Below the pieces are notes generated by a model. That model saw only the letters and a program-made list of their open reading frames with translations, did no database searches and was not told where the DNA came from. 32,000 bases of DNA from positions 6,450,001 through 6,482,000 of the forward strand of contig NZ_CP042911.1 of the NCBI RefSeq assembly GCF_008065095.1, written 5' to 3'. A program made the translations under genes and the position numbers. This stretch comes from Gemmata obscuriglobus (lineage in GTDB: Bacteria > Planctomycetota > Planctomycetia > Gemmatales > Gemmataceae). Each line of letters opens with the position of its first letter. The stretch's first letter is position 1. Below, in pieces: positions 18,092 through 32,000 of the stretch.

Positions 18092-18102
18092 CCGTCCGAA
18101 AG

Positions 18103-18175
<73 letters not shown>

Positions 18176-18312
18176 GATACACAGATACAGGGTAAAAGGT
18201 TCGGCGAAAAAGTGAAGGGGGCAGACAGCTTAGACAACAATTTCTGAAGTCTCTTCCTTCCTCGACAACTTACTAACACGGCAGCACTTCGGCAACACAA
18301 CCTCGAACCCAG

Positions 18313-18384
18313 AGCGGGCGATGGGATTTGAACCCACGACATCTTGCTTGGAAGGCAAGAGCTCTACCGCTGAGCTACACCCGC
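18313..18384 (-). tRNA. tRNA-Gly (anticodon UCC)
   Basis: Cloverleaf: acceptor GCGGGUG/CGCCCGC, D arm GCUC-AGCGGUA-GAGC, anticodon arm CUUGC-CUUCCAA-GCAAG, T arm GUGGG-UUCAAAU-CCCAU. Confidence 0.9.
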
Positions 18385-18464
18385 GAATCGCGGCCCATTC
18401 GCCCGCCGAGAGTCGCCACAACCTCCAACGCCGCCACGCGCACGTCACAACAACACCTAACCAG

Positions 18465-18547
18465 TGGGTAGGGAGGGATTCGAACCCCCGAACTCCGAAG
18501 AGGCCAGATTTACAGTCTGGTGCAATTGACCGCTCTGCCACCTACCC
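18465..18547 (-). tRNA. tRNA-Tyr (anticodon GUA), long variable arm
   Basis: Acceptor GGGUAGG/CCUACCC, anticodon arm CCAGA-CUGUAAA-UCUGG, long variable arm (CCUCUUCGGAGU), T loop UUCGAAU. Length is 83 nt. Confidence 0.88.
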
Positions 18548-18620
18548 GTGAATTTTGCCCCCGTTCCTAGCTCCAGCACACCTCGACACCCTGATTGTAT
18601 GAACCGTTCGCTAAACGGAA

Positions 18621-18692
18621 AGCTCGCGGAGGGAGTTGAACCCACGACCAGCGGTTTACAAAACCGCTGCTCTACCACTGAGCTACGCGAGC
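18621..18692 (-). tRNA. tRNA-Thr (anticodon UGU)
   Basis: Acceptor GCUCGCG/CGCGAGC, D arm GCUC-AGUGGUA-GAGC, anticodon arm GCGGU-UUUGUAA-ACCGC, T arm GUGGG-UUCAACU-CCCUC (one mismatch). Confidence 0.85.
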
Positions 18693-18710
18693 ACTTTCCT
18701 CTCACCTCCG

Positions 18711-18756
18711 AGACTACGGGCGGTTGGCCGCGTCCGCAACTTTCGTTTTTTTAACG
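18711..18756 (-). promoter_or_regulatory. Putative sigma70-type promoter with an A/T-rich UP element for the tRNA-tuf operon
   Basis: On the minus strand the order is GTTAAAAAAACGAAAG (UP-like), TTGCGG (-35, 18739-18734), a 17-nt spacer, then TAGTCT (-10, 18716-18711). The -10 ends 18 nt upstream of the first tRNA. Confidence 0.45.
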
Positions 18757-18836
18757 CTCGGTCGTTTGGAAACAGCCGGGCAGATCGTTACCACTCTTCA
18801 GCCGGTCTACCACAACTGCCGTTCGCGGCGGCCGTC

Positions 18837-19485
18837 ATGTCTAAGAGCGATTCTAAGGCGCCCGGGTTCGCCAGCAAGACTCAGAAACCGCAGAAGCCGT
18901 ACCCGCAATTTCCACTCTTCCCGCACACCATCAGCCGCTGGGCGAAGAAAATCCATGGCAAGCTGTACTATTTCGGCCCATGGGACGACCTTGACGGAGC
19001 GCTCCAGAAGCACGCCCTGCACTCCGGTCGGAAGCCGCGCGAACTGTCAGCGGGTGTCACCGTCAAGGACGTGTGCAGCACGTACCTGAACCACCAGAAA
19101 CCCGAACGCGACCGCAGCGATCTCTCGCCGCGCACGTGGAGCAACTACTGCCCTGTCGAAGCTAAATTTTCGGGTTGCCGAAGTGACAGTCATAGGGAGT
19201 TCCTGCAAAGTGGGGCGTTTCCGGCCCGAAAATATAGCGTAGACAGAGCACTACCACGACACGGCCGAACTCATCGTCACGCGATTCGGTAAGAGCCGTA
19301 TCATCGCGGACCTGCGGCCCGACGACTTCTCTGACCTGCGAAAGCACCTGGCCCGGAACTGGGGACCAGTCCGCGTGCGCAACTTCATCCAGCAGGTCCG
19401 CAGCGTGTTCAAGCGAGCGCTCGGCACCGAGCGGTTCGCCACTCCAATGCGATTCGGCCCCAGCTTCGACCGGCCTACGAATGAA
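18837..19485 (+). pseudogene. Tyrosine recombinase / phage-type integrase, N-terminal ~180 codons only; interrupted and truncated
   Basis: The first part, MSKSDSKAP...YPQFPLFPHTISRWAKKIHGKLYYFGPWDDLDGALQKH...GRKPRELSAGVTVKDVCSTYLNHQ...LSPRTWSNY, is in frame 0. After a 106-bp insertion it resumes in frame +1: HDTAELIVTRFGKSRIIADLRPDDFSDLRKHLARNWGPVRVRNFIQQVRSVFKRALGTERFATPMRFGPSFDRPT. This resembles the N-terminal/SAM-like region of planctomycete integrases. The catalytic domain is absent. Confidence 0.7.
19149..19249. mobile_element. MITE-like ~101-bp palindromic insertion flanked by a 5-bp direct repeat ACTAC
   Basis: ACTAC occurs at 19144-19148 and 19250-19254. Removing 19149-19254 restores an in-frame integrase reading ...TWSNY|HDTAELIVTRFGK. 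The ends pair as an imperfect hairpin from g19150:c19249 inward, ~25 positions with 4 mismatches. That includes ATTTTCGGG (19166-19174) against CCCGAAAAT (19225-19233). Confidence 0.7.
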
Positions 19486-19499
19486 GATGCTCCGACCGA

Positions 19500-19735
19500 G
19501 GCCGGGTGCGCGGCGTGGACCGAGGGCTTCACTCGGCACACCACGTTGGCTACCCGATCGACGCACGGGGAGAACAGGCGTTCGCGCTCGTGCCGGCCCC
19601 CGGCGACGCGCACGAACAGGTCTTCCAGGTGCGCCGGGTCGAGCGCGTACTCGAACGCGTCCGAGCCGCGACCGCCATCGGTCGGTGAGCGATAAACCGC
19701 TCCAGGACCGCACCCAGCAACATCCGTGCCCCCAT
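19500..19735 (-). pseudogene. IS4-family-like DDE transposase, N-terminal fragment (~75 codons, at least one frameshift)
   Basis: The minus strand reads MLLGAVLERFIAHRPMAVAAR, then (shifted frame) AFEYALDPAHLEDLFVRVAGGRHERERLFSPCVDRVANVVCRVKPSVHAAH. By my recollection this matches the N-terminal pattern of one IS4-family subgroup (..SP.SVM.R..LE....PE.LD.+F......Y.R.LLFS..V.LM..VVC...PSV.AAY). It abuts the truncated integrase, and the junction at ~19485-19505 is not resolved. Confidence 0.4.
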
Positions 19736-19767
19736 TCAGGCGCAACCAAACATCTATCATCAGTAAA

Positions 19768-20202
19768 CTATTGCTGGTCGTGCATGCACGAGTGTTCAAC
19801 GGCACAGAGTACGTCGAGCGCTGTGACGCCGAGCACCGCGGCGGTCGAGGCGAGAATCTTTGTGCGGTCGGCGGATGTGGCTTCGACGTATCCAGCGGCG
19901 AGAGTGGCGAGGTCAATTACGTCTCCGCCCACCCGGCTCCAGAGCCAGAACGCGGGGCGCTTGTTAGTCAAGATGCCCAAGCCACTCATCATTTCGCGCA
20001 ACCCGTACGCGCGCAGTAAGGCGGGAGAGCGGACACCGGTCGCTCGGGCCATCGTACCGGGCGCCAAGGCTTCAGCCAGTCCGAGCCCCAGGCTGAATAG
20101 GCCGAGAGCGGTAGCCAGCGGATGAAACGTCGAGCCAGCGGCGCCGGCGGGGAGGTGTGTTTTGACCGTCCGCGCCGGCAAAGGCTGAGTTACGGCTGTC
20201 AT
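19768..20202 (-). CDS. Hypothetical small membrane protein (144 aa)
   Basis: ATG-initiated ORF with 3-4 hydrophobic segments (LATALGLFSLGLGLAEAL, MMSGLGILT, VIDLATLAAGYV, AAVLGVTALDVLCAV). No motif I can name. Confidence 0.55.
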   Translation of the reverse strand: MTAVTQPLPARTVKTHLPAGAAGSTFHPLATALGLFSLGLGLAEALAPGTMARATGVRSPALLRAYGLREMMSGLGILTNKRPAFWLWSRVGGDVIDLATLAAGYVEATSADRTKILASTAAVLGVTALDVLCAVEHSCMHDQQ

Positions 20203-20631
20203 GGTTTAAACGCTCTCATACGATTGGCACACAAATCGACGCCTCGTGTTGTCAGTGCAAGGGTAATGCCCGGCTACCCACCCGAGCCGTGTTTGCTGAC
20301 TTCTCTGACGCCATCGTGGGGCCTGACGCGTGTAACATCACGTCTTCCCCAGATCGCATGTCACAGCCCACAAGAGGGGATGATCGGAACAGCATGTCCC
20401 ACGCACTCGCATAAGCACATTCGTCCTGCCGCGACCCGTAAACGGCTTGACGGTCTCGCACCTGATACCACACCCACGCCGGTGACGGTACACCTTGCGG
20501 CCGCGTGACAGGAGTTTCCTCAAAACTCGACCAAAGGATTCGTTGACGTGCGCCGGCCGCACCTTCGGCTCCGAGGTTGCTACTGAGGTCCGTTGGTTGA
20601 ACCGGGTCGTTGCTGTTCGAAAGGAACAACC

Positions 20632-20928
20632 ATGACAGCTCGTGAGCAAGGGACGCTGGCGTCTGCCGTCGGTGCGTTACTCGTCGTGGCTGGCGCGGCG
20701 TTGGTGTGGTACGGCCTCAGCCGCCGTCGTGACGCGGCAGGGGTAGGACGGCGAGCGGCTCACTTGGCGCGCTACGGAGCCGGTGTGAGCACTGGCATTT
20801 ACGACCACGTTGCGCAGGCCGCCAAAGAGGAACGGCACCCGGCCGGGACGCTCATTGAAGACGTTGTGGAGGAAGCATCAGATGATTCTTTTCCCTGCAG
20901 CGACCCGCCCTCTTGGACGGCCCGCTGA
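20632..20928 (+). CDS. Hypothetical small membrane-anchored protein (98 aa)
   Basis: Track ORF 20593..20928 trimmed to the ATG at 20632, which has AAGGAA 5 nt upstream. It has one N-terminal TM segment (LASAVGALLVVAGAALVWYGL) and a C-terminal acidic tail ending DDSFPCSDPPSW. I recall that motif recurring in small uncharacterised bacterial proteins. Confidence 0.55.
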   Translation: MTAREQGTLASAVGALLVVAGAALVWYGLSRRRDAAGVGRRAAHLARYGAGVSTGIYDHVAQAAKEERHPAGTLIEDVVEEASDDSFPCSDPPSWTAR

Positions 20929-21122
20929 CAAGGTTCGACCGCGAGCCGGCTTCGCTGCCGATGTGGACCGTAGCTCTTTGCACGCCCTAAACCCCTCTGT
21001 GGGAAAATTGAAACGTGCACCGCATTATGTGTGCAGTTACCGGCCCGGGCGGCCTGGGTGCTGGGTCTGGCACCATGCTTGCGGCTCGAGTCCCGTCCCA
21101 CCTTACACCGCAGGTCCGCGTA

Positions 21123-22043
21123 ATGGCCACGCACTCAGAAATGCAATCCGGGGCAAACGTGTTCCGCGTGCCGCTGTCGATCGTGAATGCATACTTGATC
21201 GGCCCTCCGCTCGCTACCGACCGCGGGTGGGTGCTGGTCGACGCCGGCCTCTCGATCTCACGGGCGGCAATCGTCGCGGCGGCGGCGGCGGCCTTCGGCC
21301 CGCGCTCTCGGCCGGCGGCAATCGTGCTCACTCATGGACACTTCGACCATGTCGGCTCGGTCAAAGCCCTCGCAGAGCTCTGGGACGCGCCAGTGTACGC
21401 ACACCCGCTGGAGCTGCCGTACCTCACCGGCCGGTCCGATTACCCGCCCCCGGACCCCGCTGTGGGCGGTGGTGCGATGGCGTTCGTGTCACCACTGTAT
21501 TCGCGACGCGGGATCGATCTGAGTTCGCGGGTCCGCCCCCTACCTGACAACGGGGCGGTGCCGCACCTGCCCGACTGGCAGTGGGTCCATACCCCGGGAC
21601 ACACGCCGGGGCACGTGTCGCTGTTCCGAGCCGAAGATCGGACGCTGGTTGCCGGCGACGCGTTCGTCACCACCAAACAGGAGTCACTTCTCGCCGCCCT
21701 ACTCAAGCCAGAAGCCGTGCACGGTCCGCCCGCGTACTTCACCACCGACTGGGAAACCGCTAAGGCGTCGGTGCGGGCCCTCGCCTCGCTGCAGCCAGAA
21801 GTTGCTGCGACCGGGCACGGCGTACCGATGCGGGGGCGCGAGCTGCGTGAGCAGTTGGACCGACTCGCACGCGACTTCGACCGGCTCGCGGTGCCCGTCG
21901 ATGGGCGGTACGTGCGGCGCGCGGCAGTCGCAGACATCCGGGGCGTGCGTTACGTGCCGCCCCCGGTATTCCCGCCGGCCGCGGTTCTGCTTGCGGTCGG
22001 TGCTGGTGCGGTGGTCGGAGCACTAACATCAGGCAGGGACTGA
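21123..22043 (+). CDS. MBL-fold metallo-hydrolase with a C-terminal hydrophobic anchor
   Basis: Contains THGHFDHVGS (the HxHxDH metal motif), later HTPGHTPGH, GDAF and TGHG. The C-terminus PPAAVLLAVGAGAVVGALTSGRD is hydrophobic. The start is uncertain: ATG 21123 (MATHSEMQ) is preferred over the track start at 21015. Confidence 0.8.
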   Translation: MATHSEMQSGANVFRVPLSIVNAYLIGPPLATDRGWVLVDAGLSISRAAIVAAAAAAFGPRSRPAAIVLTHGHFDHVGSVKALAELWDAPVYAHPLELPYLTGRSDYPPPDPAVGGGAMAFVSPLYSRRGIDLSSRVRPLPDNGAVPHLPDWQWVHTPGHTPGHVSLFRAEDRTLVAGDAFVTTKQESLLAALLKPEAVHGPPAYFTTDWETAKASVRALASLQPEVAATGHGVPMRGRELREQLDRLARDFDRLAVPVDGRYVRRAAVADIRGVRYVPPPVFPPAAVLLAVGAGAVVGALTSGRD

Positions 22044-22741: not shown

Positions 22742-24051
22742 GAACGGGCACGGAATAACTTCCCGACTTCATGGTGGGTCTGGAAGTGCGGTGTAGTTCC
22801 ACTTGGGTAGGACCGGATCGAAGACGATCTTCATCGCCTTCTTGAACCCGGTCACGCACTTCCGGCCGGTCGCGTACGCCTTGTTCAACCGCCCGACGAA
22901 GATCCGCAACCCGGTCGTCGTCTCGGACTTCGCCATGTAATGGCGAACCGCCTCCACGGTGTGGAACACCACCCGCGACAGGCCCGGCTCACGTGCGGGA
23001 ACAGCCGGTGTTCGATCGGGTTGTACTTCGAGCAGTACGGCGGGTCGTGGGCCACCCGAATCTCCAGCCCGGTCGCTTCGCCTACTCCTGAAGGTCTTCC
23101 TGGAGCAGGTACTGGGGCGCATTATTGCTGCCCCGGCCGTTGCACAACACCAACGCCTTCTTCGCCTCCGGATACCGAGTGCGGCCGTGCTGCTCCCACC
23201 ACGCCGCGAGGCCGCCGCACGCCAACGCGCTGGTGTCATGGCTCGTGTTCACATGCACGAACCCCTCGTTGCGCCCCCACGTCGTACAGGCGTGCGGGAC
23301 ACCTTGCCCCCGCCCTGACTCGGGAACTCGTGGTCGTTGGTGGTGATCGTCTTCCGCGTGCCGCTCACACCATCGCGGTAGAAGCCCCCCAGCAACTCCT
23401 TTTTCTTTGTGTCGATGCTCAACACCGGCAGGCCCGCCGCAAGGTACGGGCCCTTCAACCGGGCGATGGTCTCGAACGGGGCGTTGCGGTCCAGGTGCCG
23501 GCCCATCGTCTTCCTCTTCAACGCCTTGCGTTGGCGGTACCCGTGCCGGCGCAACAACGGGCCGACGGTCCGGCGGCTGACCGACGCCCCCAGCGCCTTC
23601 ATCCGCCGCGCGATCTGTCTGCGGGACAGGCTGGTCCACCTCACGTCCGAGTTCATGGGGCCATCGACCGTGTGGCCCCAGAGTACCTCCGCGAACGGTC
23701 CCGACACGCCCGGCTTGGGGTCGATCAACTGCTTGCGTCCGCCCCCTTTTCCGCACCCGCGGGGTGTCGAGTTCGTCTTCGGCTTCCAGTTCACCAATCC
23801 CCTGGCGAATCGTCTTGAGATCGCAGCCCAGCAACGTGGCGATGTACTCGGTTCCGCCGTGCCCGAGTTTGGTGGCCTCGATCGCCGCGTATCGGCGTCG
23901 GTCGTTCTCGCGGAGAGAGAGCGGTACAACCGCTTCATCATTCGCTTCACGGCGGCTGGGTACGGACTCGTGGCGCACTCCGCTCGGTCCCGGAACTGGA
24001 GGGAGCGTAACCGAAGACTACAATTCCGGGAAGTTACTCCGTGCCCGTTTC
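22742..24051 (-). mobile_element. ISAzo13-family-like insertion sequence (~1.31 kb) with terminal inverted repeats
   Basis: 22742-22763 (gaacgggcacggaataacttcc) is the reverse complement of 24029-24051 (ggaagttactccgtgcccgtttc), apart from one substitution and one extra t. These repeats enclose the degenerate transposase below. Confidence 0.7.
22769..23978 (-). pseudogene. ISAzo13-type (Rhodopirellula-type DDE) transposase, at least 3-4 frameshifts
   Basis: The reading must hop between three minus-strand frames. The pieces are ...RYAAIEATKLGHGGTEYIATLLGCDLKTIRQGIGELE...RVRKRG, then GGRKQLIDP...RWTSLSRRQIARRMKALGASVSRRTVGPLLRRHGYRQRKALKRKTMG...LSIDTKKKELLGGFYRDG, then ...FVHVNTSHDTSALACGGLAAWWEQHGR..., then YCSKYNPIEHRLFPHVSRA, then VVFHTVEAVRHYMAKSETTTGLRIFVGRLNKAYATGRKCVTGFKKAMKIVFDPVLPKWNYTALP. 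Confidence 0.7.
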
Positions 24052-24070: not shown

Positions 24071-24862
24071 TCAACGATGCGCGGCGGTCAGCAGGTAGCC
24101 GACCAGTTCATCCAGTTGCGCGGCGCCACACCCTGCCCGGCACGCGTCCTCGACGGAACCGGCCGCGGCGGAGATGTGCGGCAAACCGTACATGCCGGCC
24201 GACCCACGTAATTGGTGGGCAAGTTCGGATACTCGAAGCATGTTCCCCTCGCGGAGCGCCTCGCCGATCGCGCGTACCTTCTCAGGCAGCGCCCGGCAGT
24301 AATCAGCGGTCAACTGGGCCAGACCCGACGGAACGGCCTCCCCATAACCCACAGAAGGCGGCACATCGAACCAAGTCGGGGAGCAACTCATCCCCCAACG
24401 ATCCGGCGAGAGGTAAGTTCTTACGACCTGGAGCAGCTTGTCCGGATTTACTGGCTTGCTCAGATATGTGTCGCAACCGGCCGACAGGCATTTCTCTTCA
24501 TCACACGACTGCGCGTGTGCGGCGAGTGCCACGACCGCCCCTGAGTACCCGCGCCGGCGCAATGCGCGAGCCGCCGCGTACCCGCCCGGCTCGCGCATCT
24601 GCATATCCATCAGGATCACGTCGAACGCACCACCGGACGCCAGTTCCAGTGCAGTGCGGCCGTTCTCAACCGCTTCCACTTCCAACCCAGCACGCTCTAA
24701 AATGTGCCGCAGCACTGATTGCGTCTCCGTCGCGTCCGCGGCCAGTAGTACCCGTCCGGCAAGCCGCTCCGCCGGATCCTGCGGGATCGAACCGGGGCGC
24801 GACTGTTCCGCAAGGCCGGCTGGGTCTGGGGACTCGCTCATCTCGACCTCGCGCAGGGACAT
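24071..24862 (-). CDS. Response-regulator receiver fused to a C-terminal Hpt domain (REC-Hpt phosphorelay protein)
   Basis: REC: RVLLAADATE...FDVILMDMQMREPGG...VVALAAHA...YLSKPV. The phospho-acceptor Asp and the Lys are present. Hpt: LRVSELAHQLRGSAGMYGLPHISAAAGSVE (HxxKG-type motif as HQLRGSAG). The start is the ATG at 24862 or 24841. Confidence 0.8.
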   Translation of the reverse strand: MSLREVEMSESPDPAGLAEQSRPGSIPQDPAERLAGRVLLAADATETQSVLRHILERAGLEVEAVENGRTALELASGGAFDVILMDMQMREPGGYAAARALRRRGYSGAVVALAAHAQSCDEEKCLSAGCDTYLSKPVNPDKLLQVVRTYLSPDRWGMSCSPTWFDVPPSVGYGEAVPSGLAQLTADYCRALPEKVRAIGEALREGNMLRVSELAHQLRGSAGMYGLPHISAAAGSVEDACRAGCGAAQLDELVGYLLTAAHR

Positions 24863-25068
24863 CGTGGGATCACCGCCGGGTCGGTGCGCCCCTGAGGCCG
24901 CTCACAAGTTGCTCCGGTGAGCCGCCCCACGTGCGTACCCAGCGATCGCTGTGAATCTGGCTTTGAGCCACCAATCGCCGCCCGCGCCTGCGGCGCAATT
25001 CCCGCGGTGTCGCAAGCCGTGTCCGCCGACCCGCGTGGGGCGCTCCGGACCGGAAGTGACAGGCGCAC

Positions 25069-27393
25069 TCACAAGCGCTCTGCGCCAGCCAGAAAGATGC
25101 GGTCGAACTGGTCGGCGATCGAACCGAACGCGTACACCAGCACAGGGTCGAACTGCCCCGGGGACTCGGCTACGATGACCCGCACCGCGCGGGGGTGGCT
25201 CAGCGCCGGCCGGTACGGCCGGCGGCACCGCAACGCGTCATACACGGACACCAACGCCACGAGCCGCGCGGCCAGTGGGATCTGTTCGCCGCGCAGCCCG
25301 TCCGGATATCCGGTACCGTCCCAGCGCTCGTGGTGCCCCTTCGCAATGTCGGCCGCCACCGCCACCCCCACGGCTTCCGGGTGCGCCGCGGCCAACCGGG
25401 CAAGCAGGTGACCGCCGACGGTCGGGTGCGCTTGCACCGCCAGCCGCTCGGTCTCGTCCAGCCGCCCCCGTTTGGACAGCGTGTCCGGCGGGACCGACAG
25501 CATGCCAACGTCGTGGGCCGGTGCGGCCTTGGCCAGCAGGTCCACGAACACCGGGTGCGACAGCCGCACGTACGCGCCCGTGTGCGGAACTGCCGCGGCA
25601 AGGGCACGGACGTACTGAGGGATCCGAGCGTGGTACCCGCGGTCCACCGCGCCGACCTCTTCGGCCAACCGGCACGCCCCTTGCGCCAACAGGGCGACGG
25701 CCGTGGACGCCGTCGCATCGGGCGCCACATCGGCGGGGGGCCGGCTCCCGGTGCCGCTGCCGTGGTGCCGCCCGAGTTCGCCGCGGCGGGCCAGCAGCCC
25801 CCGCACGCGAGAGAGGAACTCGGGCGGGGTGAACGGTTTGCGGATGAAGTCGTCCGCGCCGCCCAGAAGCAACCCGCCGAGCGACTCGGTGGGCACCCGG
25901 CCCGACATGTACAGGATCATCGGGACCGGCGGGGCCGCGACCTGCTGCACCCGGGCAATGAACTTGGAGCCGTCCAGCCGCGGCATCTCTTGATCGACCA
26001 CCAGGAGATCGAACCGCCCACCTTCGACCCGCCCCAGCCCGTCCCGCCCGTCGGCCGCCTCCACGCACTCGTACCCGTCGCCCAGCAGCGCGCGCACGTA
26101 CGCGCGCACGTCGGGGTCGTCGTCGATCACCAGCACCCGGGGGCGCGGCGGGCCGGCCGCGCCGGCCCGCGCCGGCGGCCGGTAACTGACGAACGGCAGC
26201 AGCGCCGCCGCCGCCGCCGCCGCCGAAGGGAACCGCCGCCCGGGGTCCGGGTCCATGAGCTTGGCCACCAGCGCGTCCAACTCGGCCGGCAGTTCGGGGC
26301 GGTGCTCGCGCACCCGCGGCACGGTCCCGTGCAGCCGCCGCGCCACCATCGCCATGAGGTCCCCGCCGGCGGGAAACGGGTCGCGCCCGGTGAGGGCCAG
26401 GAACAGCGAGGCGCCCAGCCCGAACACGTCGGCCCGGCCGTCGACCCGACTCGGGTGTTCGACCTGTTCCGGGGCCATGTACCCGACCGACCCGATCAGC
26501 ACCCCCGGCTCGGTCAGCTCCTGGGCCGAGTGCCGCGCGAGCCCGAAGTCGAGCACCTTGGCCTTCCAGTCCGGGGTGACCAGGATGTTGGGCGGTTTGA
26601 TGTCCCGGTGCACCAGCCCGTGCCGGTGCGCCTCGGCCAGCGCCTCGGCGACCTGGCGGAGCAGGTCCGCCGCCCGGTGCACCGGGAGCGGGCCGCCGCC
26701 GGCCACGGTGGCCTGCAGGTCGGCCCCCGGCACTAGGTCCATCACGTAGTACTCGCGGGCGGGGCCGCCCGGGCGCAGCGGCCCCTCGCGCCCGGCGTCC
26801 AGGCAGCTCACGATGTTCGGGTGCTGCAGCCGGGCCACGGCCCGGGCCTCCAGGAAGAAGCGGCTGCTGAGCCGGGCGTCACCCGCGTGCCGCTCGGTCA
26901 ACACTTTGAGCGCCACCGGGCGCCGCAGGTGCCGGTGCTCGGCCCGGTACACCAGCCCCATGCCCCCGCGCCCCAGAGGCTCTAACAGGCGGTAGTGCCC
27001 CAGCAGCAGCGAGGCGCTGTCGCCGGCGCGCACCGCGTCCGCCTGGAACCGGGTCAGCAGGTGCCGCCCCATCAGCGCCGTCAGTGCGGCGTTCGTGTCC
27101 GCTTGGGCGGCGAGTTCGGCCCGCACCTCGGCGGGCAACTCGTCCCACTCCTCGCGGAGCAGAACGCCGCTGCTCAACAAATCCAGCACCGGCGTGGGCT
27201 GGGGTCCCCCCGGCGGCGCCCGGCGCGCGTCCGCCGGGCCGGACCGGGTCCCGTTGCGCAACTGGTTCACCCCACGGACCTCCGCGCCCCGCCGCTTCGT
27301 GCGCCGGGGCTGTGCTATAGAGAAATCGGGACGCACGCTGAACTCTAGTGCGCGTCCGAACCGGCTCCGACCGCGCCAGCCGGAACACAGCAT
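25069..27393 (-). CDS. Hanks-type Ser/Thr protein kinase - REC - HD-GYP three-domain fusion (774 aa)
   Basis: Kinase, aa ~134-385: LGRGGMGLVYRA, VALKVL, HRDIKPPNIL, DFGLA, GYMAPE. REC, aa ~419-533: VLVIDDDPD, LLVVDQEMPRLDG, ILYMSG, IRKPF. HD-GYP, aa ~575-760: HDVGM, HHERWDGTGYPDGL. The N-terminal 130 aa and the exact start are uncertain; the ATG at 27393 is the longest option. Confidence 0.85.
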   Translation of the reverse strand: MLCSGWRGRSRFGRALEFSVRPDFSIAQPRRTKRRGAEVRGVNQLRNGTRSGPADARRAPPGGPQPTPVLDLLSSGVLLREEWDELPAEVRAELAAQADTNAALTALMGRHLLTRFQADAVRAGDSASLLLGHYRLLEPLGRGGMGLVYRAEHRHLRRPVALKVLTERHAGDARLSSRFFLEARAVARLQHPNIVSCLDAGREGPLRPGGPAREYYVMDLVPGADLQATVAGGGPLPVHRAADLLRQVAEALAEAHRHGLVHRDIKPPNILVTPDWKAKVLDFGLARHSAQELTEPGVLIGSVGYMAPEQVEHPSRVDGRADVFGLGASLFLALTGRDPFPAGGDLMAMVARRLHGTVPRVREHRPELPAELDALVAKLMDPDPGRRFPSAAAAAAALLPFVSYRPPARAGAAGPPRPRVLVIDDDPDVRAYVRALLGDGYECVEAADGRDGLGRVEGGRFDLLVVDQEMPRLDGSKFIARVQQVAAPPVPMILYMSGRVPTESLGGLLLGGADDFIRKPFTPPEFLSRVRGLLARRGELGRHHGSGTGSRPPADVAPDATASTAVALLAQGACRLAEEVGAVDRGYHARIPQYVRALAAAVPHTGAYVRLSHPVFVDLLAKAAPAHDVGMLSVPPDTLSKRGRLDETERLAVQAHPTVGGHLLARLAAAHPEAVGVAVAADIAKGHHERWDGTGYPDGLRGEQIPLAARLVALVSVYDALRCRRPYRPALSHPRAVRVIVAESPGQFDPVLVYAFGSIADQFDRIFLAGAERL

Positions 27394-27523
27394 TTCGCGC
27401 GGCGGCCGGAATCATCAGCCGGGGCGCGAAATACGGTGAGCCCGCAAATTCGGCCCGAACCGCTCGATAAGCGGAGTGAGCGTCTGGAACCCTCCGGACG
27501 CATTGCCGAGCGGAGAGCGACGA

Positions 27524-27838
27524 ATGGCCGGTGCATCCCCGGTTCGCGTGACCGACGACGAGCGCCCGGGGTGGGCCCGGCTGGTGCTCGCCGGCCGGGT
27601 GACCGTCACCGACGCACACCCGCTGCACGCCGCGGCCCGCGAAATACTCGCCCGCGGCGCCAACGTGGCGGTGCGGTGCGAGGGGGTCGAGCACCTCGAC
27701 ACGGCCGCGATCCAAGTGCTACTGTCCCTGAGCCGCGAGGTCCGTCGGGCGGGCCGGCAGTTGGTCGTCGGCGGCGTCCCCGGCCCCATCGCGGAGTACT
27801 TACGGCTGGCCGGACTGGCCGGACAGCCCGCCGCCTGA
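27524..27838 (+). CDS. STAS-domain protein (anti-sigma-factor-antagonist-like)
   Basis: ARLVLAGRVTVTDAHPLHAAAREIL...VAVRCEGVEHLDTAAIQVLLSLSREVRRAGRQLVVGGVPGPIAEYLRLAGL follows the SpoIIAA/STAS layout. Thr occupies the position of the phosphorylatable Ser (DSSG becomes DTAA). The start is set to the ATG at 27524, with GGAGAG 6 nt upstream. The track GTG at 27476 is also possible. Confidence 0.7.
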   Translation: MAGASPVRVTDDERPGWARLVLAGRVTVTDAHPLHAAAREILARGANVAVRCEGVEHLDTAAIQVLLSLSREVRRAGRQLVVGGVPGPIAEYLRLAGLAGQPAA

Positions 27839-27873
27839 CCGGCCCTTTCCCGAGAATCCGGGACCGAGGAACG

Positions 27874-28239
27874 ATGAACAAGACCATCCTGATCGTGGAC
27901 GACTCCCCCACCATGCGGCAGATGGTGGGCGACACGCTTCGCGGCGCCGGGTACGCGGTGCTCGAAGGGGTCAACGGGTCCGACGCGCTCGCGAAGGTCG
28001 CGGGGCGCACGGTGCACCTGGTCATCACCGACTTCAACATGCCGGTGATGGGCGGGCTGGTGCTGATCGAGCGGCTCCGCGCCAAACCCGAGTTCCGGTT
28101 CACCCCGATCCTGGTGCTGACCACCGAGTCCGAAACGTCGCGCAAGGAACAGGGGAAGGCCGCGGGCGCGACCGGCTGGGTGACCAAGCCGTTCGACCCG
28201 GCGCGGCTGGTCCAGGTGGTTAAGCGGTTAATGCCCTGA
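27874..28239 (+). CDS. cheY: CheY-like single-domain response regulator (121 aa)
   Basis: The internal ATG of track ORF 27436..28239 gives MNKTILIVDDSPTMRQM...HLVITDFNMPVMGG...ILVLTTES...GATGWVTKPF. The acidic pocket DD, the phospho-Asp, Thr and Lys are all present. It lies immediately upstream of cheA. Confidence 0.9.
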   Translation: MNKTILIVDDSPTMRQMVGDTLRGAGYAVLEGVNGSDALAKVAGRTVHLVITDFNMPVMGGLVLIERLRAKPEFRFTPILVLTTESETSRKEQGKAAGATGWVTKPFDPARLVQVVKRLMP

Positions 28240-28256
28240 CACGAACGGCGGACGCC

Positions 28257-31200
28257 ATGCAACTCGATCCCGAGCGCTACCTGCGCACCTTTTTCGACGA
28301 GGCCGTCGAGCACATCAGCGCCCTTGAGGGGGCGCTGCTGCGGCTCGAATCCGGGCCGCACGACCCCGCGGCGGTGGACGCCGCGTTCCGGGCCGCCCAC
28401 TCGGTCAAGGGCGGCGCGGACGCGGTCGGGCTCCCGCACATCGCCAAGTTCACTCACGGGCTCGAGGGGTTCCTGGAGCGGTTCCGGGGCGGGGGCAAGA
28501 TCCCCCGCCGGGTGCTGGACCTGTTGCTCGAGGCGACCGACACGCTCGGCCGGCTGGTGTCGGCCGCCCGCGCCGCCGAGGCGCCCCCCCCGGGCGTCGA
28601 CGAGCTGCTCGCGCGGCTCACCACCGACGCCGGCGGGTCGATGGTCTCCAAGTCGTGGTGGGCCGCCCCGCAGGCGCTGGGCGCGCTCCAGTCGCAGGCC
28701 GGCGCCCCCAAACCGGCTCCGACCTCTGGGTCGCAGGCCGGGAGCCCCAAACCGGCCGCTCCGGCGCCGGCCGCTCCGCCGCCGGCCGCGGCCCCCGAAC
28801 CGACCACCTACACGGTGACCGTCGTCCCGCACCCCGAGGCGCTGCGGTCCGGCCTGGACCCCCTCGGGCTGCTGCGCGAGGTCGGCGCCCTGGGGACCGT
28901 CGAGCGGGTCGAGGTGCACACGAAGGGGCTGCCCGCGCTCGCCGACCTGGACCCCGAGCGGTGCTACCTCTCGTGGACCCTCCGGCTCAGCACCGCGCAG
29001 CCCGCGGACGCGATCCGCGACGTGTTCGCGTTCGCTCCGGCCCTGGTAAAGGCGACCGTGCAGGTCGGTGCCACCGACCCGTCGCCAGCCGACTCGGCCG
29101 CGCCGCCCCAGGCGCCGCCCGCTCCGCCGCCGCCGAAGGCCCCGCCCGCGGCCCCCAAGACCCCGGCCGCCACCTGGGTCGCATCGTTCGAGCGCAAGCT
29201 GCCGATTCCGGACCCGATCCGGTTCGCCACCTTCCTCGTGGACCGGGGGACCGTTACCGCACCGCAAGCGCTCACCGCGCTCGCCCGACAGCACGAGGCG
29301 CGCCCGACCCTCGGGCGCGTCGCGGTCGAGGCCGGGCTGGTGACCGTCGAGAACCTCACGGGGCTGCTCGCCCACATGGGGCCGGACGAAGGGTTCGGGA
29401 GCGCCGCGGTGCGGCTCGGGTACCTGTCCGAGAACGACCTGGGGCGGCTCGTGCTCGCGCAAGAGCGGCAGGCCCCGCCGATCGGGGAGTGCCTGGTCGA
29501 AACCGGGGCCCTGACCCCCGACCAGTTGAGCACCGAGACGCTCCAGTTCTGCGCCAAGGCGGCGACCGCGCCGCACCCCGCCTCCAGCTATTGCGACCTC
29601 CCCCCGCCGCCTGTGGAGATGCCCCGCGCCCCCGGGCAGTCGCTGCTGCTCGAGAACGGCCCGATGATCGGTGACTTCTGCCAGGAGGCGTCCGAGCACC
29701 TGGAAACGGCCGACAGGAACCTGCTGGTCATCGACGGCGACCCCACCAACGCGAACGCCCTGAACGCGGTGTACCGCGGGTTCCACACCATCAAGGGCGT
29801 GTCCAGCATGCTCGGGCTGGCCGCGGTGCAGATGGTGGCCCACGAGGCCGAGAACCTGCTCAACCTGGCCCGCGACGGCAAAGTGCGGCTCCAGGGCAAG
29901 CCGATGGACCTGGTGTTCGCCAGCACCGACGCGCTGAAGCGCCAGGTGCAGTTCATCCGCGCCTGGAGCACCGAAGGCGGGCGGCTCGCAGAGGACCCGG
30001 CCCTCCCGGCGCTGGTCGCGGAGCTGCGCGTCGCGGCCAGTGGCGCGACCGAAGCCCCGCCCCGGGCCGCACCCAAGTCCGTCGCCCCGCCGGCCCCCGT
30101 TGCTGCGGCCGCGCCGGCACCGGCGGCCGAGCACGTCCCGGCCCCGGCCCCCAAGGCGGAGAAGGCCGAGCACGCCCCGGCCCCGGCACCGGCACCGAAG
30201 GCGGAAAAGGCCGAACCTGCCGCCGAGGGCGCCGGCCTGCGTCGCATCCCCGAGAAGGAAACGGTGCGGGTCGACAAGGACCGGCTCGACAAGCTCATCA
30301 ACACCATCGGCGAGCTGGTCATCGCGCAGTCCATGGCCCAGCAGGAGTTCGACGAGATGTCCAACGGCTCGGGCGTGGGCTCGCTGGCCCTGCCCGAACT
30401 GGCGAAGATCTCGCGGGACCTGCAGGAGCTGAGCCTGTCCCTGCGAATGGTGCCGCTCCAGGGCACGTTCCAAAAGATGGCCCGGCTGGTGCGGGACCTG
30501 TCCCGCAAGATGAACAAGCCGGTGGAGCTGGAACTCCACGGGGAGGAAACCGAACTCGACAAGACGGTGGTGGACCAGCTCGGCGACCCGCTCATGCACA
30601 TGGTCCGCAACGCCGTCGACCACGGGCTCGAAGACCCCGACGAGCGGACCACGGTGGGCAAGACGCGGGAGGGGCACGTCGAGCTCCGCGCGTACCACCA
30701 GGGCGGCAGCGTGTTCATCGAGCTGACCGACGACGGCAAGGGGCTGGACCGTGAGCGGATCCTGAAGAAAGCGGTCGAGAAGGCGATTATTGCCGAAGGC
30801 CAGCGGCTCACGGACCCCGAGATCTACGCGCTCATCTTCGAGCCCGGGTTCTCGACCGCCAAGGCCGTCACCGACGTGTCCGGCCGCGGGGTCGGGATGG
30901 ACGTGGTGCGGCGGAACGTGGAGGCGCTGCAGGGCAACATCCTGATCCGCACCCAGGCCGGCAAGGGCACCACGTTCACCATCCGGCTGCCGCTCACGCT
31001 GGCCATCATGGACGGGCTGATGGTCGCGCTCGGGGACGACGTGTACGTGCTGCCGCTGCTGTCGGTGGTCGAGTCGTTCCGCCCGCACCCCGCGGACCTG
31101 CGCCGGGTCGCGGGCCACGGCGAGGCGGTGACGGTCCGCGGCGAGGTGGTGCCGCTCCTGCGGCTGCACCAGCTGTTCGGCCGCTCCGCGCGGGTCGAGG

Positions 31201-31457
31201 ACCCGGGCCGGGGGCTGGTGGTGCTGGTCGAGGACCAGGGCAAAAAGCACGCGATCCTGGTGGACGAGCTGCTGGGCCAGATGCAGGCGGTGGTGAAGAG
31301 CCTGGACGCCAACTACCGCCGGGTGGAAGGGCTCGCCGGGGCCACGATCCTCGGCGACGGCCGGGTGGCGATGATCCTCGACATCCACGGGCTGGCCCAG
31401 TTGCACGCCCAGGGCGGCGGGGCCCTGGAACCGATGTTGGCCCCGGCCGCGGTGTGA
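28257..31457 (+). CDS. cheA: Chemotaxis-type histidine kinase CheA with two Hpt domains and an intervening MshEN/T2SSE_N-like repeat module (1066 aa)
   Basis: Hpt-1: FFDEAVEHISALE...FRAAHSVKGGADAVGL. A conserved post-P1 module follows (TYTVTVVPHPEALRSGLDPLGLLREVGALG...DPERCYLSWTLRL). Four 24-aa repeats occupy 29220-29549. Hpt-2: FCQEASEHLE...YRGFHTIKGVSSMLGL. An Ala/Pro linker carries the duplicated PAPAPKAEKAE. The rest is a dimerisation region (VRVDKDRLDKLINTIGELV), HATPase (HMVRNAVDHG, DDGKGLD, GRGVGMDVV, GKGTTF) and a C-terminal CheW-like P5 (VLPLLSVVE...GATILGDGRVAMILD). Confidence 0.9.
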   Translation: MQLDPERYLRTFFDEAVEHISALEGALLRLESGPHDPAAVDAAFRAAHSVKGGADAVGLPHIAKFTHGLEGFLERFRGGGKIPRRVLDLLLEATDTLGRLVSAARAAEAPPPGVDELLARLTTDAGGSMVSKSWWAAPQALGALQSQAGAPKPAPTSGSQAGSPKPAAPAPAAPPPAAAPEPTTYTVTVVPHPEALRSGLDPLGLLREVGALGTVERVEVHTKGLPALADLDPERCYLSWTLRLSTAQPADAIRDVFAFAPALVKATVQVGATDPSPADSAAPPQAPPAPPPPKAPPAAPKTPAATWVASFERKLPIPDPIRFATFLVDRGTVTAPQALTALARQHEARPTLGRVAVEAGLVTVENLTGLLAHMGPDEGFGSAAVRLGYLSENDLGRLVLAQERQAPPIGECLVETGALTPDQLSTETLQFCAKAATAPHPASSYCDLPPPPVEMPRAPGQSLLLENGPMIGDFCQEASEHLETADRNLLVIDGDPTNANALNAVYRGFHTIKGVSSMLGLAAVQMVAHEAENLLNLARDGKVRLQGKPMDLVFASTDALKRQVQFIRAWSTEGGRLAEDPALPALVAELRVAASGATEAPPRAAPKSVAPPAPVAAAAPAPAAEHVPAPAPKAEKAEHAPAPAPAPKAEKAEPAAEGAGLRRIPEKETVRVDKDRLDKLINTIGELVIAQSMAQQEFDEMSNGSGVGSLALPELAKISRDLQELSLSLRMVPLQGTFQKMARLVRDLSRKMNKPVELELHGEETELDKTVVDQLGDPLMHMVRNAVDHGLEDPDERTTVGKTREGHVELRAYHQGGSVFIELTDDGKGLDRERILKKAVEKAIIAEGQRLTDPEIYALIFEPGFSTAKAVTDVSGRGVGMDVVRRNVEALQGNILIRTQAGKGTTFTIRLPLTLAIMDGLMVALGDDVYVLPLLSVVESFRPHPADLRRVAGHGEAVTVRGEVVPLLRLHQLFGRSARVEDPGRGLVVLVEDQGKKHAILVDELLGQMQAVVKSLDANYRRVEGLAGATILGDGRVAMILDIHGLAQLHAQGGGALEPMLAPAAV

Positions 31458-31558: not shown

Positions 31559-32000
31559 TCAGTACCGCACCGCGAACCCGACACCGGCGAAGAGGTCGCC
31601 CGCCCGGCGGTTCAGGCCGAACCCGAACCGGGCGTCGACCTGGAAATTCGGAGTCACCCGGTACAGGAGCCCGCTGTCGAAGTAATACTGGGGACCGGCC
31701 CGCGGGGTGTCGGCCCCGGCCGGCGCGAGCACGAAGAACTCGGTGAACGCCCCGAGCCGCTCGGTCAGAGTGTACCCCACCGACAGCGATTGCGCGAGCT
31801 GGGCGTACGTGCCCCCGGTGTCGTCCACGGCGGCGGCCGCGGCGCTGGTCCCGCCGAGCGACACCAGGTCGGGGATCAGCTCCCACGAGTAGAGGTACAG
31901 TAGCCCCGGCAGCGGGTGCCGGCCGCTCAGCTCCCGCCGCCCGGTGGGGACGGTCATCTGCAAGGTGACCGCGGTTTCCGGGCGCCAGCCGGCGCCCTCC
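31559..32000 (-). CDS. Outer-membrane beta-barrel-type protein (resembles the 'MetA-pathway/transporter' family), C-terminal part; the 5' end lies beyond the window
   Basis: The frame is open to position 32000 (..EGAGWRPETAVTLQMTVPTG..). It shows alternating beta-strand-like patterning and the terminal ...LLYRVTPNFQVDARFGFGLNRRAGDLFAGVGFAVRY, an aromatic C-terminal residue typical of OM barrels. It is convergent with cheA. Confidence 0.45.
   Translation of the reverse strand, partial: EGAGWRPETAVTLQMTVPTGRRELSGRHPLPGLLYLYSWELIPDLVSLGGTSAAAAAVDDTGGTYAQLAQSLSVGYTLTERLGAFTEFFVLAPAGADTPRAGPQYYFDSGLLYRVTPNFQVDARFGFGLNRRAGDLFAGVGFAVRY

Follow-up and report, generated by a model that had tools for sequence, protein, structure and literature searches.

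Back-to-back chemotaxis operon start and RpfG-like regulator in Gemmata obscuriglobus

Chemosensory control of the second messenger cyclic di-GMP (c-di-GMP) is known mainly from Wsp of Pseudomonas, a system with a cyclase output. In Wsp, chemosensory phosphorylation sets the c-di-GMP level through a receiver-domain enzyme that is encoded in the operon itself (PMC8846402). The c-di-GMP-modulating chemosensory systems known so far belong to two classes, alternative cellular functions (ACF) and type IV pili (TFP) (PMC8846402). Here we describe a locus of the planctomycete Gemmata obscuriglobus in which the genes for a STAS protein, CheY and CheA lie back to back with a gene for a protein that joins a Hanks-type Ser/Thr kinase, a receiver (REC) domain and an HD-GYP phosphodiesterase domain (the large protein hereafter). 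The locus occupies positions 24071-31457 of a 32,000-nucleotide stretch of contig NZ_CP042911.1. We call the whole stretch the window.

Two other kinds of described systems resemble parts of this locus. In RpfC/RpfG of Xanthomonas, an REC-HD-GYP output protein is encoded beside a hybrid kinase that ends in REC-Hpt, where Hpt is a histidine phosphotransfer domain. For RpfG-type regulators it is established that phosphorylation activates c-di-GMP hydrolysis. In planctomycetes, motile swarmer cells alternate with attached cells, and to our knowledge planctomycete signalling is almost unstudied. CheA proteins that carry an MshEN module are also known and were catalogued in 2016 (PMC5013675).

The genes for STAS, CheY and CheA stand at the conserved 5' end of a full Gemmataceae chemotaxis operon. 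On balance, we favour a reading in which two units stand back to back, the start of this operon and an RpfG/RpfC-like pair, and in which the receiver of the large protein is a second acceptor of the chemotaxis pathway. We hold the structural description of the locus with high confidence. Taken alone, the region in this window is an ordinary operon start with a neighbouring regulator.

The chemotaxis operon and the gene divergent from it

Five signalling genes make up the locus. On the plus strand lie the genes for STAS (27524-27838; 104 aa as in the NCBI record; STAS_2, 7.4e-15), CheY (27874-28239; 121 aa; Response_reg, 8e-26) and CheA (28257-31457; 1066 aa; two Hpt, H-kinase_dim, HATPase_c and CheW-like domains). 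On the minus strand lie the genes for the large protein (25069-27393; a 774-aa open reading frame, ORF; Pkinase, REC and HD_5 at 1.8e-41, 8.4e-19 and 1.4e-24) and for an REC-Hpt protein (24071-24862; 263 aa; Response_reg 1.2e-22 at 38-147, Hpt 3.3e-11 at 184-251). The calls come from the ORF listing and Pfam scans, and all exceed the Pfam gathering scores. Together the five genes hold three REC domains, three Hpt domains, a CheA core, a Hanks kinase, an HD-GYP domain, a STAS domain and, inside CheA, a tandem MshEN_N-like module. This is the inventory, at the same positions, that a preliminary description of this DNA had given.

The same description read the five genes as a closed circuit that lacks receptor and adaptation genes. 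Inside the window no MCP (methyl-accepting chemotaxis protein), CheW, CheB or CheR gene is present, and our ORF and Pfam scans of the rest of the window returned no further chemotaxis gene. The chromosome, however, continues with them. In the G. obscuriglobus chromosome CP025958.1, from which we read the sequence past the window end, CheW starts about 590 bp beyond the edge. Next come a 766-aa MCP (4HB_MCP-HAMP-PAS-MCPsignal), an oppositely oriented Alginate_exp gene, a further MCP and a 512-aa CheR_N-CheR-CheD fusion (Pfam). Because CheW, MCPs and CheR-CheD follow in the same chromosome, the apparent lack of receptors and adaptation genes is an artefact of the window boundary. CheB, CheY2 and CheX were read in relatives (CheB in Gemmata algarum and Gemmata sp. 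G18) and lie outside the G. obscuriglobus sequence that we fetched. With CheB predicted from these relatives, cheA is accompanied by the receptor, coupling and adaptation genes of a complete chemosensory system.

To place this operon, we searched 80 genome loci, found with the CheA alignment, with the window and operon proteins (tblastn). The standard order in Planctomycetota is CheY-CheA-CheW-MCP(s)-CheR/CheD-CheB, and Gemmataceae-type loci add STAS in front of CheY-CheA. In all compared loci cheY lies immediately upstream of cheA. CheY is 99% identical to that of G. algarum and 49-87% identical to those of the other tabulated Planctomycetota operons. In Gemmata sp. G18 (loci L083/L173) the order is STAS-CheY-CheA-CheW-MCP-MCP-(Alginate_exp)-MCP-CheR/CheD-CheB-CheY2-CheX, with no outer-membrane gene after cheA and a gap of 3 bp between cheA and cheW. 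G. algarum (L001 and L171/L172) shows MCP-CheR/CheD-CheB-REC up to the contig end. The porin-like Alginate_exp gene lies on the opposite strand among the MCP genes in G. obscuriglobus (L081), G. algarum (L171/L172) and Gemmata sp. G18 (L083/L173).

The flanks of the five genes were partly misread before. A gene for a Phenol_MetA_deg outer-membrane protein (minus strand, 3' part at 31559-32000; 320 aa, running off the window; Pfam) is indeed convergent with cheA, and a partial transposase of the DDE_Tnp_ISAZ013 family (23082-23978, minus strand; Pfam 1.5e-14, profile positions 126-206 of 308) does flank the REC-Hpt gene as insertion sequence (IS) debris. The outer-membrane gene (L081:13303-14265), however, sits inside the operon and not at its end. 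It lies between cheA and cheW only in G. obscuriglobus and G. algarum, and since the two genes are 3 bp apart in Gemmata sp. G18, it is a lineage-specific insertion within the operon.

As a conserved unit, the neighbourhood of five genes does not hold. Outside G. obscuriglobus, the exact arrangement occurs only in G. algarum. A metagenome-assembled genome (MAG) of Gemmata (L174/L175) has the same layout with a full hybrid kinase, of which only the N-terminal part is seen, in place of REC-Hpt. Gemmata sp. G18, IIL30 and most other Gemmataceae loci lack the arrangement.

What recurs is the large protein in or beside chemotaxis operons. Its gene is divergent from STAS in the window, in G. algarum (L001; protein 93% identical) and in the Gemmata MAG (83%). 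It lies 3' of cheB at a distance of 115 bp in L009 (58%) and of 25 bp in L176 (66%). In L170 (53%) it is found between CheR-CheD and CheY2-CheX, and no hybrid kinase was called there within 10 kb downstream. In L015 (52%) it follows CheX, in a block divergent from STAS-CheY-CheA. In L084 (72%) it follows CheR of a second chemotaxis operon, which is itself divergent from STAS-CheY-CheA. Hence at least eight genomes or MAGs carry the gene in or beside chemotaxis operons, in about five arrangements, and it is co-operonic with che genes in L009, L170, L176, L015 and L084.

Look-ups that started from the kinase protein itself give a similar picture. Four of the seven informative ones are linked to che genes and three are not; the eighth (contig P0130) says nothing about linkage because the gene lies 347 bp from the contig end. 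By chance we would expect roughly 1% per look-up (che loci taken as about 100 kb of a 9-Mb genome, with paralogy ignored), so that even two or more linked cases among seven would be improbable. Such recurrence is what one would look for if CheA, or the che pathway, signals to this receiver, and of the circuit proposed in the preliminary description it is the one element that finds real support.

Some Gemmataceae have a second chemotaxis operon divergent beside the STAS-CheY-CheA operon (L084:2724-9750, L170:1-1522). It reads CheA2-CheW-MCP(GAF)-CheB-CheR in L084 and is a divergent CheA-CheY in L170. In L084 the large-protein gene and a PAS hybrid kinase follow the second operon, and then comes flgE.

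The large protein and its partner kinase

All three catalytic or receiving parts of the large protein look intact. Its Pkinase (26227-26994), REC (25804-26136) and HD-GYP (25141-25578; HD_5, 1.4e-24) domains, all on the minus strand, were called with Pfam and compared in an alignment of 21 homologues. The motifs of a Hanks kinase (K162, H261-R262-D263, D281-F282-G283 and P307-E308 of the APE motif) are invariant. Those of the receiver (the DDD pocket, D466, S496 and K518) are invariant or nearly so, and so are those of the HD-GYP domain (H626-D627, H655 and H686-H687-E688...D691...G694-Y695-P696, that is HHERWDGxGYP). The first HD-GYP histidine (GYHAR) is present in the window protein and variable among more distant homologues. 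The HD-GYP call made earlier thus stands: with a receiver in front, the protein has the make-up of an RpfG-family phosphodiesterase, and judged by these residues its HD-GYP domain looks catalytically intact.

The protein probably starts at the GTG at 27273 (residue 41 of the ORF), because its homologues begin at that position; it would then have 734 aa. Between this start and the kinase lies a conserved region of about 70 aa (residues 62-131; 27001-27210, minus strand; from the alignment). It reads EEWDELP ... HLLTRFQAD, with invariant E, W, L, T and Q, and it has no Pfam match and no profile match among PDB sequences. More than 120 clusters of full-length homologues with the order Pkinase-REC-HD-GYP exist at 46% identity or more, and those clusters with a named source are nearly all from Gemmataceae or Planctomycetota. 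Compared with CheY2 and CheY, the receiver of the large protein gives slightly higher scores than with the receivers of hybrid kinases, which is weak evidence.

Several relatives reveal a partner. A hybrid kinase ending in REC-Hpt is encoded directly 3' of the large-protein gene in L084, in L086 and on the P0130 contig, and those of L084 and L086 have PAS/GAF sensors of the cytoplasmic type. In the Gemmata MAG (L175; large protein 83% identical), the large-protein gene is directly followed by the PAS-bearing N-terminal part of a kinase, which matches the L084 kinase; the contig then ends. Relatives therefore have the adjacent hybrid kinase of an RpfC/RpfG-type pair, and in G. obscuriglobus only REC-Hpt is left of it. 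Over its full length, REC-Hpt is 45-48% identical to the C-terminal ends of these kinases (residues 977-1229 of 1239 in L084, 686-914 of 933 in L086), and the similarity starts exactly where their HATPase_c domain ends.

The preliminary description took REC-Hpt for a phosphate shuttle. The sequence comparison shows instead a truncated relic of an RpfC-like partner hybrid kinase under relaxed selection, and not a purpose-built shuttle. REC-Hpt changes much faster than the genes around it: the copies of G. obscuriglobus and G. algarum share 64% identity, where the neighbouring genes reach 89-100%, and in G. obscuriglobus three canonical receiver residues are replaced (E to A, T to A and P to R). 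No remnant of HisKA or HATPase is found in the 206 bp between the REC-Hpt and large-protein genes. In G. algarum (L001:5866-6612) the frame 5' of the REC-Hpt start reads ...GAGR..TVPL, like the end of a HATPase_c domain, and may be a deletion scar. We also considered truncation of the kinase by an IS insertion and rejected it, since the IS fragment lies 3' of REC-Hpt and the missing part would be 5'. The most that the G. obscuriglobus stub could do is to serve as a sink or a relay for phosphate.

CheA, the STAS protein and the rest of the window

CheA has the domains expected of a CheA kinase: a P1-type Hpt with the HxxKG histidine, a dimerisation domain, HATPase_c and a CheW-like P5. On the plus strand, Hpt1 (about 28278-28556, His48) is followed by a ferredoxin-like domain in the P2 position (28800-29072, residues 182-272), two tandem MshEN_N-like units (29220-29549, from PDB profile matches and fold), Hpt2 (29664-29945, His510), the dimerisation domain (30258-30431, Pfam H-kinase_dim), HATPase_c (30585-30998, Pfam) and the CheW-like P5 domain (31014-31400, Pfam). 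Fifteen full-length homologues share this architecture, Hpt1, a 90-aa domain, a helical insert of about 110 aa, Hpt2, P3, P4 and P5, and in all 15 both His48 and His510 are invariant. Shorter Gemmataceae CheAs differ only by the absence of residues from about 287 to 450.

The insert had been called MshEN-like and candidate for c-di-GMP binding. Profile and fold searches support the call. Pfam does not: scanned alone, the insert gave no T2SSE_N match and only DUF4388 at E=0.026. Searched as a profile against PDB sequences, it matches Thermus PilF (2.4e-8), the N-domain of Vibrio MshE (5HTL, 3e-3) and also PilB. The AlphaFold model of the insert has eight helices and a predicted local distance difference test score (pLDDT) of 95.5. 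Its best Foldseek matches are MshE (5htl) and PilF-GSPII-B, both c-di-GMP-bound, at a probability of 0.95-1.0 and with a root-mean-square deviation of 1.6 A over 57 columns; the E-values are only 0.5-1.2, as expected for a short helical module. The insert consists of two tandem 24+5+24 units, with five-residue spacers between repeats 1 and 2 and between repeats 3 and 4. Profile and model together find, in each unit, the four-helix arrangement of MshEN_N (two 24-residue motifs and a five-residue spacer). Hence an MshEN_N-type fold in the CheA insert is supported.

The binding residues are kept unevenly. Hydrophobic positions and Gly10 are mostly retained across the repeats. In repeats 1 to 4, Arg1 is present in 12/14, 0/14, 3/14 and 0/14 sequences, Gly3 in 2/14, 9/14, 10/14 and 4/14, and Gln24 in 4/14, 0/14, 13/14 and 0/14. 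Of the full signature RLGxx(L/V/I)(L/V/I)xxG(L/V/I)(L/V/I)xxxxLxxxLxxQ, which marks both motifs of the MshEN domain, no repeat keeps Arg1, Gly3 and Gln24 together, and measured by the relaxed motif of the authors of PMC5013675 each repeat of the window CheA has one or two mismatches. Wang et al. 2016 found that hydrophobic residues dominate c-di-GMP binding and that changes of Arg9 or Gln32 cost less than fivefold (PMC5013675). The same authors list some MshEN proteins without a recognisable binding motif (PMC5013675). CheA may receive feedback through the tandem module, from c-di-GMP or from some other ligand or partner.

The module is present in all six che operons that carry the large-protein gene and show CheA. 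We tried and rejected this co-occurrence as meaningful: it is not significant, as about 14 of 18 Gemmataceae CheAs carry the module.

The 90-aa domain between Hpt1 and the insert is strongly conserved (invariant G18, DPL, PE.Y..W and F.F) and occupies the place that the CheY-binding P2 domain has in other CheAs. It may resemble a segment of alpha-proteobacterial CheA (Sinorhizobium). The window copy has no Pfam match, and a profile search of PDB sequences found no homologue; a newer Pfam family, PF27543, matches some short homologues. AlphaFold predicts a ferredoxin-like beta-alpha-beta-beta-alpha-beta fold (pLDDT 92.7). With Foldseek, the model gives generic ferredoxin-like/S6 matches, and no CheA P2 structure is among the top 50.

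The STAS gene, with an ORF that is open as far back as 27476, heads the chemotaxis operon of Gemmataceae and lies directly 5' of cheY-cheA in about 17 loci. It accompanies CheY-CheA with or without a Hanks kinase gene. At the SpoIIAA-type phospho-site the window protein has Thr and the G. algarum protein Ala; further orthologues carry Val, Ala, Pro or Ser there. In the window and the flanks examined we saw no gene for an RsbW-like anti-sigma kinase or a PP2C phosphatase. Thus the protein has the STAS fold of SpoIIAA/RsbV without the constant site or the visible partner genes of a partner switch.

The rest of the window comprises the rpsG, rpoC, rpoB, rplJ, rplA, nusG, secE and tuf region, five tRNA genes, a gene of the metallo-beta-lactamase fold (21015-22043) and the partial ISAZ013-type transposase. 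A tRNA cluster at 18102-18692 encodes tRNA-Thr, Tyr, Gly and Thr. Between this cluster and the metallo-beta-lactamase-fold gene (18700-21000) there are ORFs of about 200 aa on both strands without a Pfam match. The G+C content is 0.58-0.63 at 11-20 kb (the ribosomal-protein, tuf and tRNA region) and 0.72-0.76 at 25-32 kb (the signalling genes).

Readings of the locus and comparison with known systems

In the reading that we favour, the receptors (MCP-CheW) would control CheA, and CheA would phosphorylate CheY, with CheR-CheD and CheB adapting the receptors. From phosphorylated CheA, phosphate would also reach the receiver of the large protein by way of one of the two CheA Hpt domains. Phosphorylation of D466 would then activate the HD-GYP domain, lower c-di-GMP and so couple taxis to the decision between motile and attached life. 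The Hpt domain of the hybrid kinase would be the other, ancestral input to this receiver, reduced in G. obscuriglobus to the REC-Hpt stub. Gene content, intact domains, the continuation of the operon, the recurring neighbourhood, the descent of REC-Hpt and the fold of the insert are shown; these phosphotransfer steps, the phosphodiesterase activity with its control by the receiver and any binding of c-di-GMP by CheA we infer. The receiver is probably a second chemotaxis acceptor because its family recurs after cheB, cheR, cheR-cheD or cheX, or divergent from STAS. It would have two candidate donors, the Hpt domains of CheA, suggested by the recurring neighbourhood, and the Hpt domain of the partner hybrid kinase, suggested by adjacency in relatives. 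That CheA feeds this receiver is plausible; for the phosphotransfer itself we put the chance at slightly under even.

Several observations weigh against this reading. An adjacent hybrid kinase with its own Hpt domain would, by analogy with RpfC/RpfG, be a sufficient sole input. The family members of L086, L169 and L088 have no che gene in the DNA seen. Gemmata sp. G18 has a complete operon and no large protein within about 10 kb beyond either end, so that the link can only be facultative. Each genome holds several paralogues, and the che-linked copies are not established as orthologues. In the window the kinase gene is divergently transcribed and not co-operonic with the che genes. The strict MshEN signature RLG...Q is kept in none of the four repeats of CheA. 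The family members without che neighbours and the case of Gemmata sp. G18 would fit two unrelated modules that are merely adjacent, in which hybrid kinases alone control the large protein through their Hpt domains, as in RpfC/RpfG, and the chemotaxis pathway signals only to CheY, CheY2 and CheB. The hybrid kinase that immediately follows the gene in L084, in L086 and on the P0130 contig, and its N-terminal part in L175, fit such a separation too, as do the decay of REC-Hpt and the IS debris next door; losing its kinase partner in G. obscuriglobus, the module may itself be on its way out. Yet mere adjacency would leave the return of the gene to che operons in several arrangements to coincidence, including L170, with no hybrid kinase called in the 10 kb downstream, and L176 with 25 bp to cheB. 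Nor does a module on its way out agree well with a large protein that shows 93% conservation from G. obscuriglobus to G. algarum and has all its motifs intact. We regard simple adjacency as unlikely, though it deserves to be kept in view. The closed, receptor-less phosphorelay hub of exactly five genes can practically be discarded. Nothing spoke for it except the absence of MCP, CheW, CheB and CheR genes within 32 kb, and the source contig refutes it: the same chromosome carries CheW, two MCPs and CheR-CheD directly beyond the window, Gemmata sp. G18 has the operon in one piece, and no conservation of the set of five genes extends beyond G. algarum.

Two further proposals extend the circuit beyond a shared acceptor. 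The tandem MshEN_N module could make CheA a c-di-GMP receptor, with the level set by the HD-GYP domain tuning kinase activity. In favour of this, the insert matches the c-di-GMP-bound forms of MshE and PilF-GSPII in profile and fold, the 24+5+24 spacing is kept twice, and the positions that matter most for binding according to PMC5013675, the hydrophobic ones and Gly10, are largely retained; the module also occurs in six of six che operons with the kinase gene and a visible CheA. The polar contacts, however, are mostly missing, with Arg1 kept only in repeat 1, Gln24 only in repeat 3 and Gly3 variable, and a module found in about 14 of 18 Gemmataceae CheAs tells little by its co-occurrence. We consider c-di-GMP sensing by CheA rather doubtful. 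Still somewhat more doubtful is the whole loop, in which CheA would phosphorylate the large protein, thereby lower c-di-GMP and possibly switch the Hanks kinase, and the MshEN_N module would read the result back. If true, chemotaxis and c-di-GMP would be tied into one feedback loop at a single locus, a kind of loop for which motility-type che systems offer no described case. The preliminary description had also suggested that the Hanks kinase acts on the STAS protein. The other proposal is a partner switch in which this kinase phosphorylates STAS on the SpoIIAA-type Thr and thereby controls a sigma factor or CheA. The window STAS does have Thr at the canonical position, and Hanks kinases that phosphorylate STAS proteins have precedent in mycobacteria. 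But the residue is Ala in the closest relative and other residues elsewhere, neither an anti-sigma kinase gene nor a PP2C gene turned up in the window or in the flanks that we examined, and STAS stays with CheY-CheA where the kinase gene is absent. Because the phospho-site Thr is not conserved, we regard such a switch as very improbable.

If the receiver of the large protein does take phosphate from CheA, then a single kinase would serve both taxis signalling and the second messenger that governs swimming or settling. The output, a phosphodiesterase joined to a eukaryote-like kinase, would be wired to a full CheY/CheX-type operon, and this would work differently from Wsp. The locus and its relatives also offer a natural series for the sharing of a response regulator between CheA and a hybrid kinase, from an intact kinase through the REC-Hpt stub to no partner at all. 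In the literature that we searched we found no description of a che-linked Hanks-kinase-REC-HD-GYP protein, which is not proof of absence.

Among described systems, Wsp (WspA-F and WspR, an REC-GGDEF protein; class ACF) resembles this locus in that a receiver-bearing c-di-GMP enzyme is encoded with a CheA-type pathway, within the operon in Wsp and in several relatives and divergently from it here. In contrast to the cyclase of Wsp, the enzyme here is an HD-GYP phosphodiesterase with an N-terminal Hanks kinase. The CheA here is not a CheA-REC hybrid, and the operon has CheY, CheY2 and CheX, as motility-type systems do. Unlike in Wsp, the coupling here is suggested by gene neighbourhood only. 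RpfC/RpfG of Xanthomonas shares with L084, L086 and the P0130 contig the REC-HD-GYP output beside a hybrid kinase that ends in REC-Hpt. The planctomycete pair differs by the extra Hanks kinase domain, by partner kinases with cytoplasmic-type PAS/GAF sensors and by its repeated linkage to che genes, and in G. obscuriglobus the partner has lost sensor and kinase core.

The preliminary description knew of no precedent for the combination of domains in the locus. For its MshEN-CheA part there is one: the architecture is not new. As in the MshEN-CheA proteins of Supplementary Table 4 of PMC5013675, an MshEN_N-type module is inserted after the N-terminal phosphotransfer/P2 region and before the dimerisation domain. 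The variant features of the CheA here are the tandem duplication, with two 24+5+24 units, the second Hpt domain that follows them, and the planctomycete host, where the table has Actinobacteria and Proteobacteria; in addition, its Arg/Gln contacts are poorly conserved. The operon itself follows the canonical Planctomycetota order CheY-CheA-CheW-MCP-CheR/CheD-CheB, for example that of Rhodopirellula baltica (L064), with orthologous proteins: its CheY, CheA and CheW share 49-100% identity with their counterparts in the tabulated Planctomycetota operons. Gemmataceae extend this order by STAS at the front and CheY2-CheX at the rear, some of them also have the MshEN_N insert in CheA, and in G. obscuriglobus and G. 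algarum the outer-membrane gene interrupts the operon.

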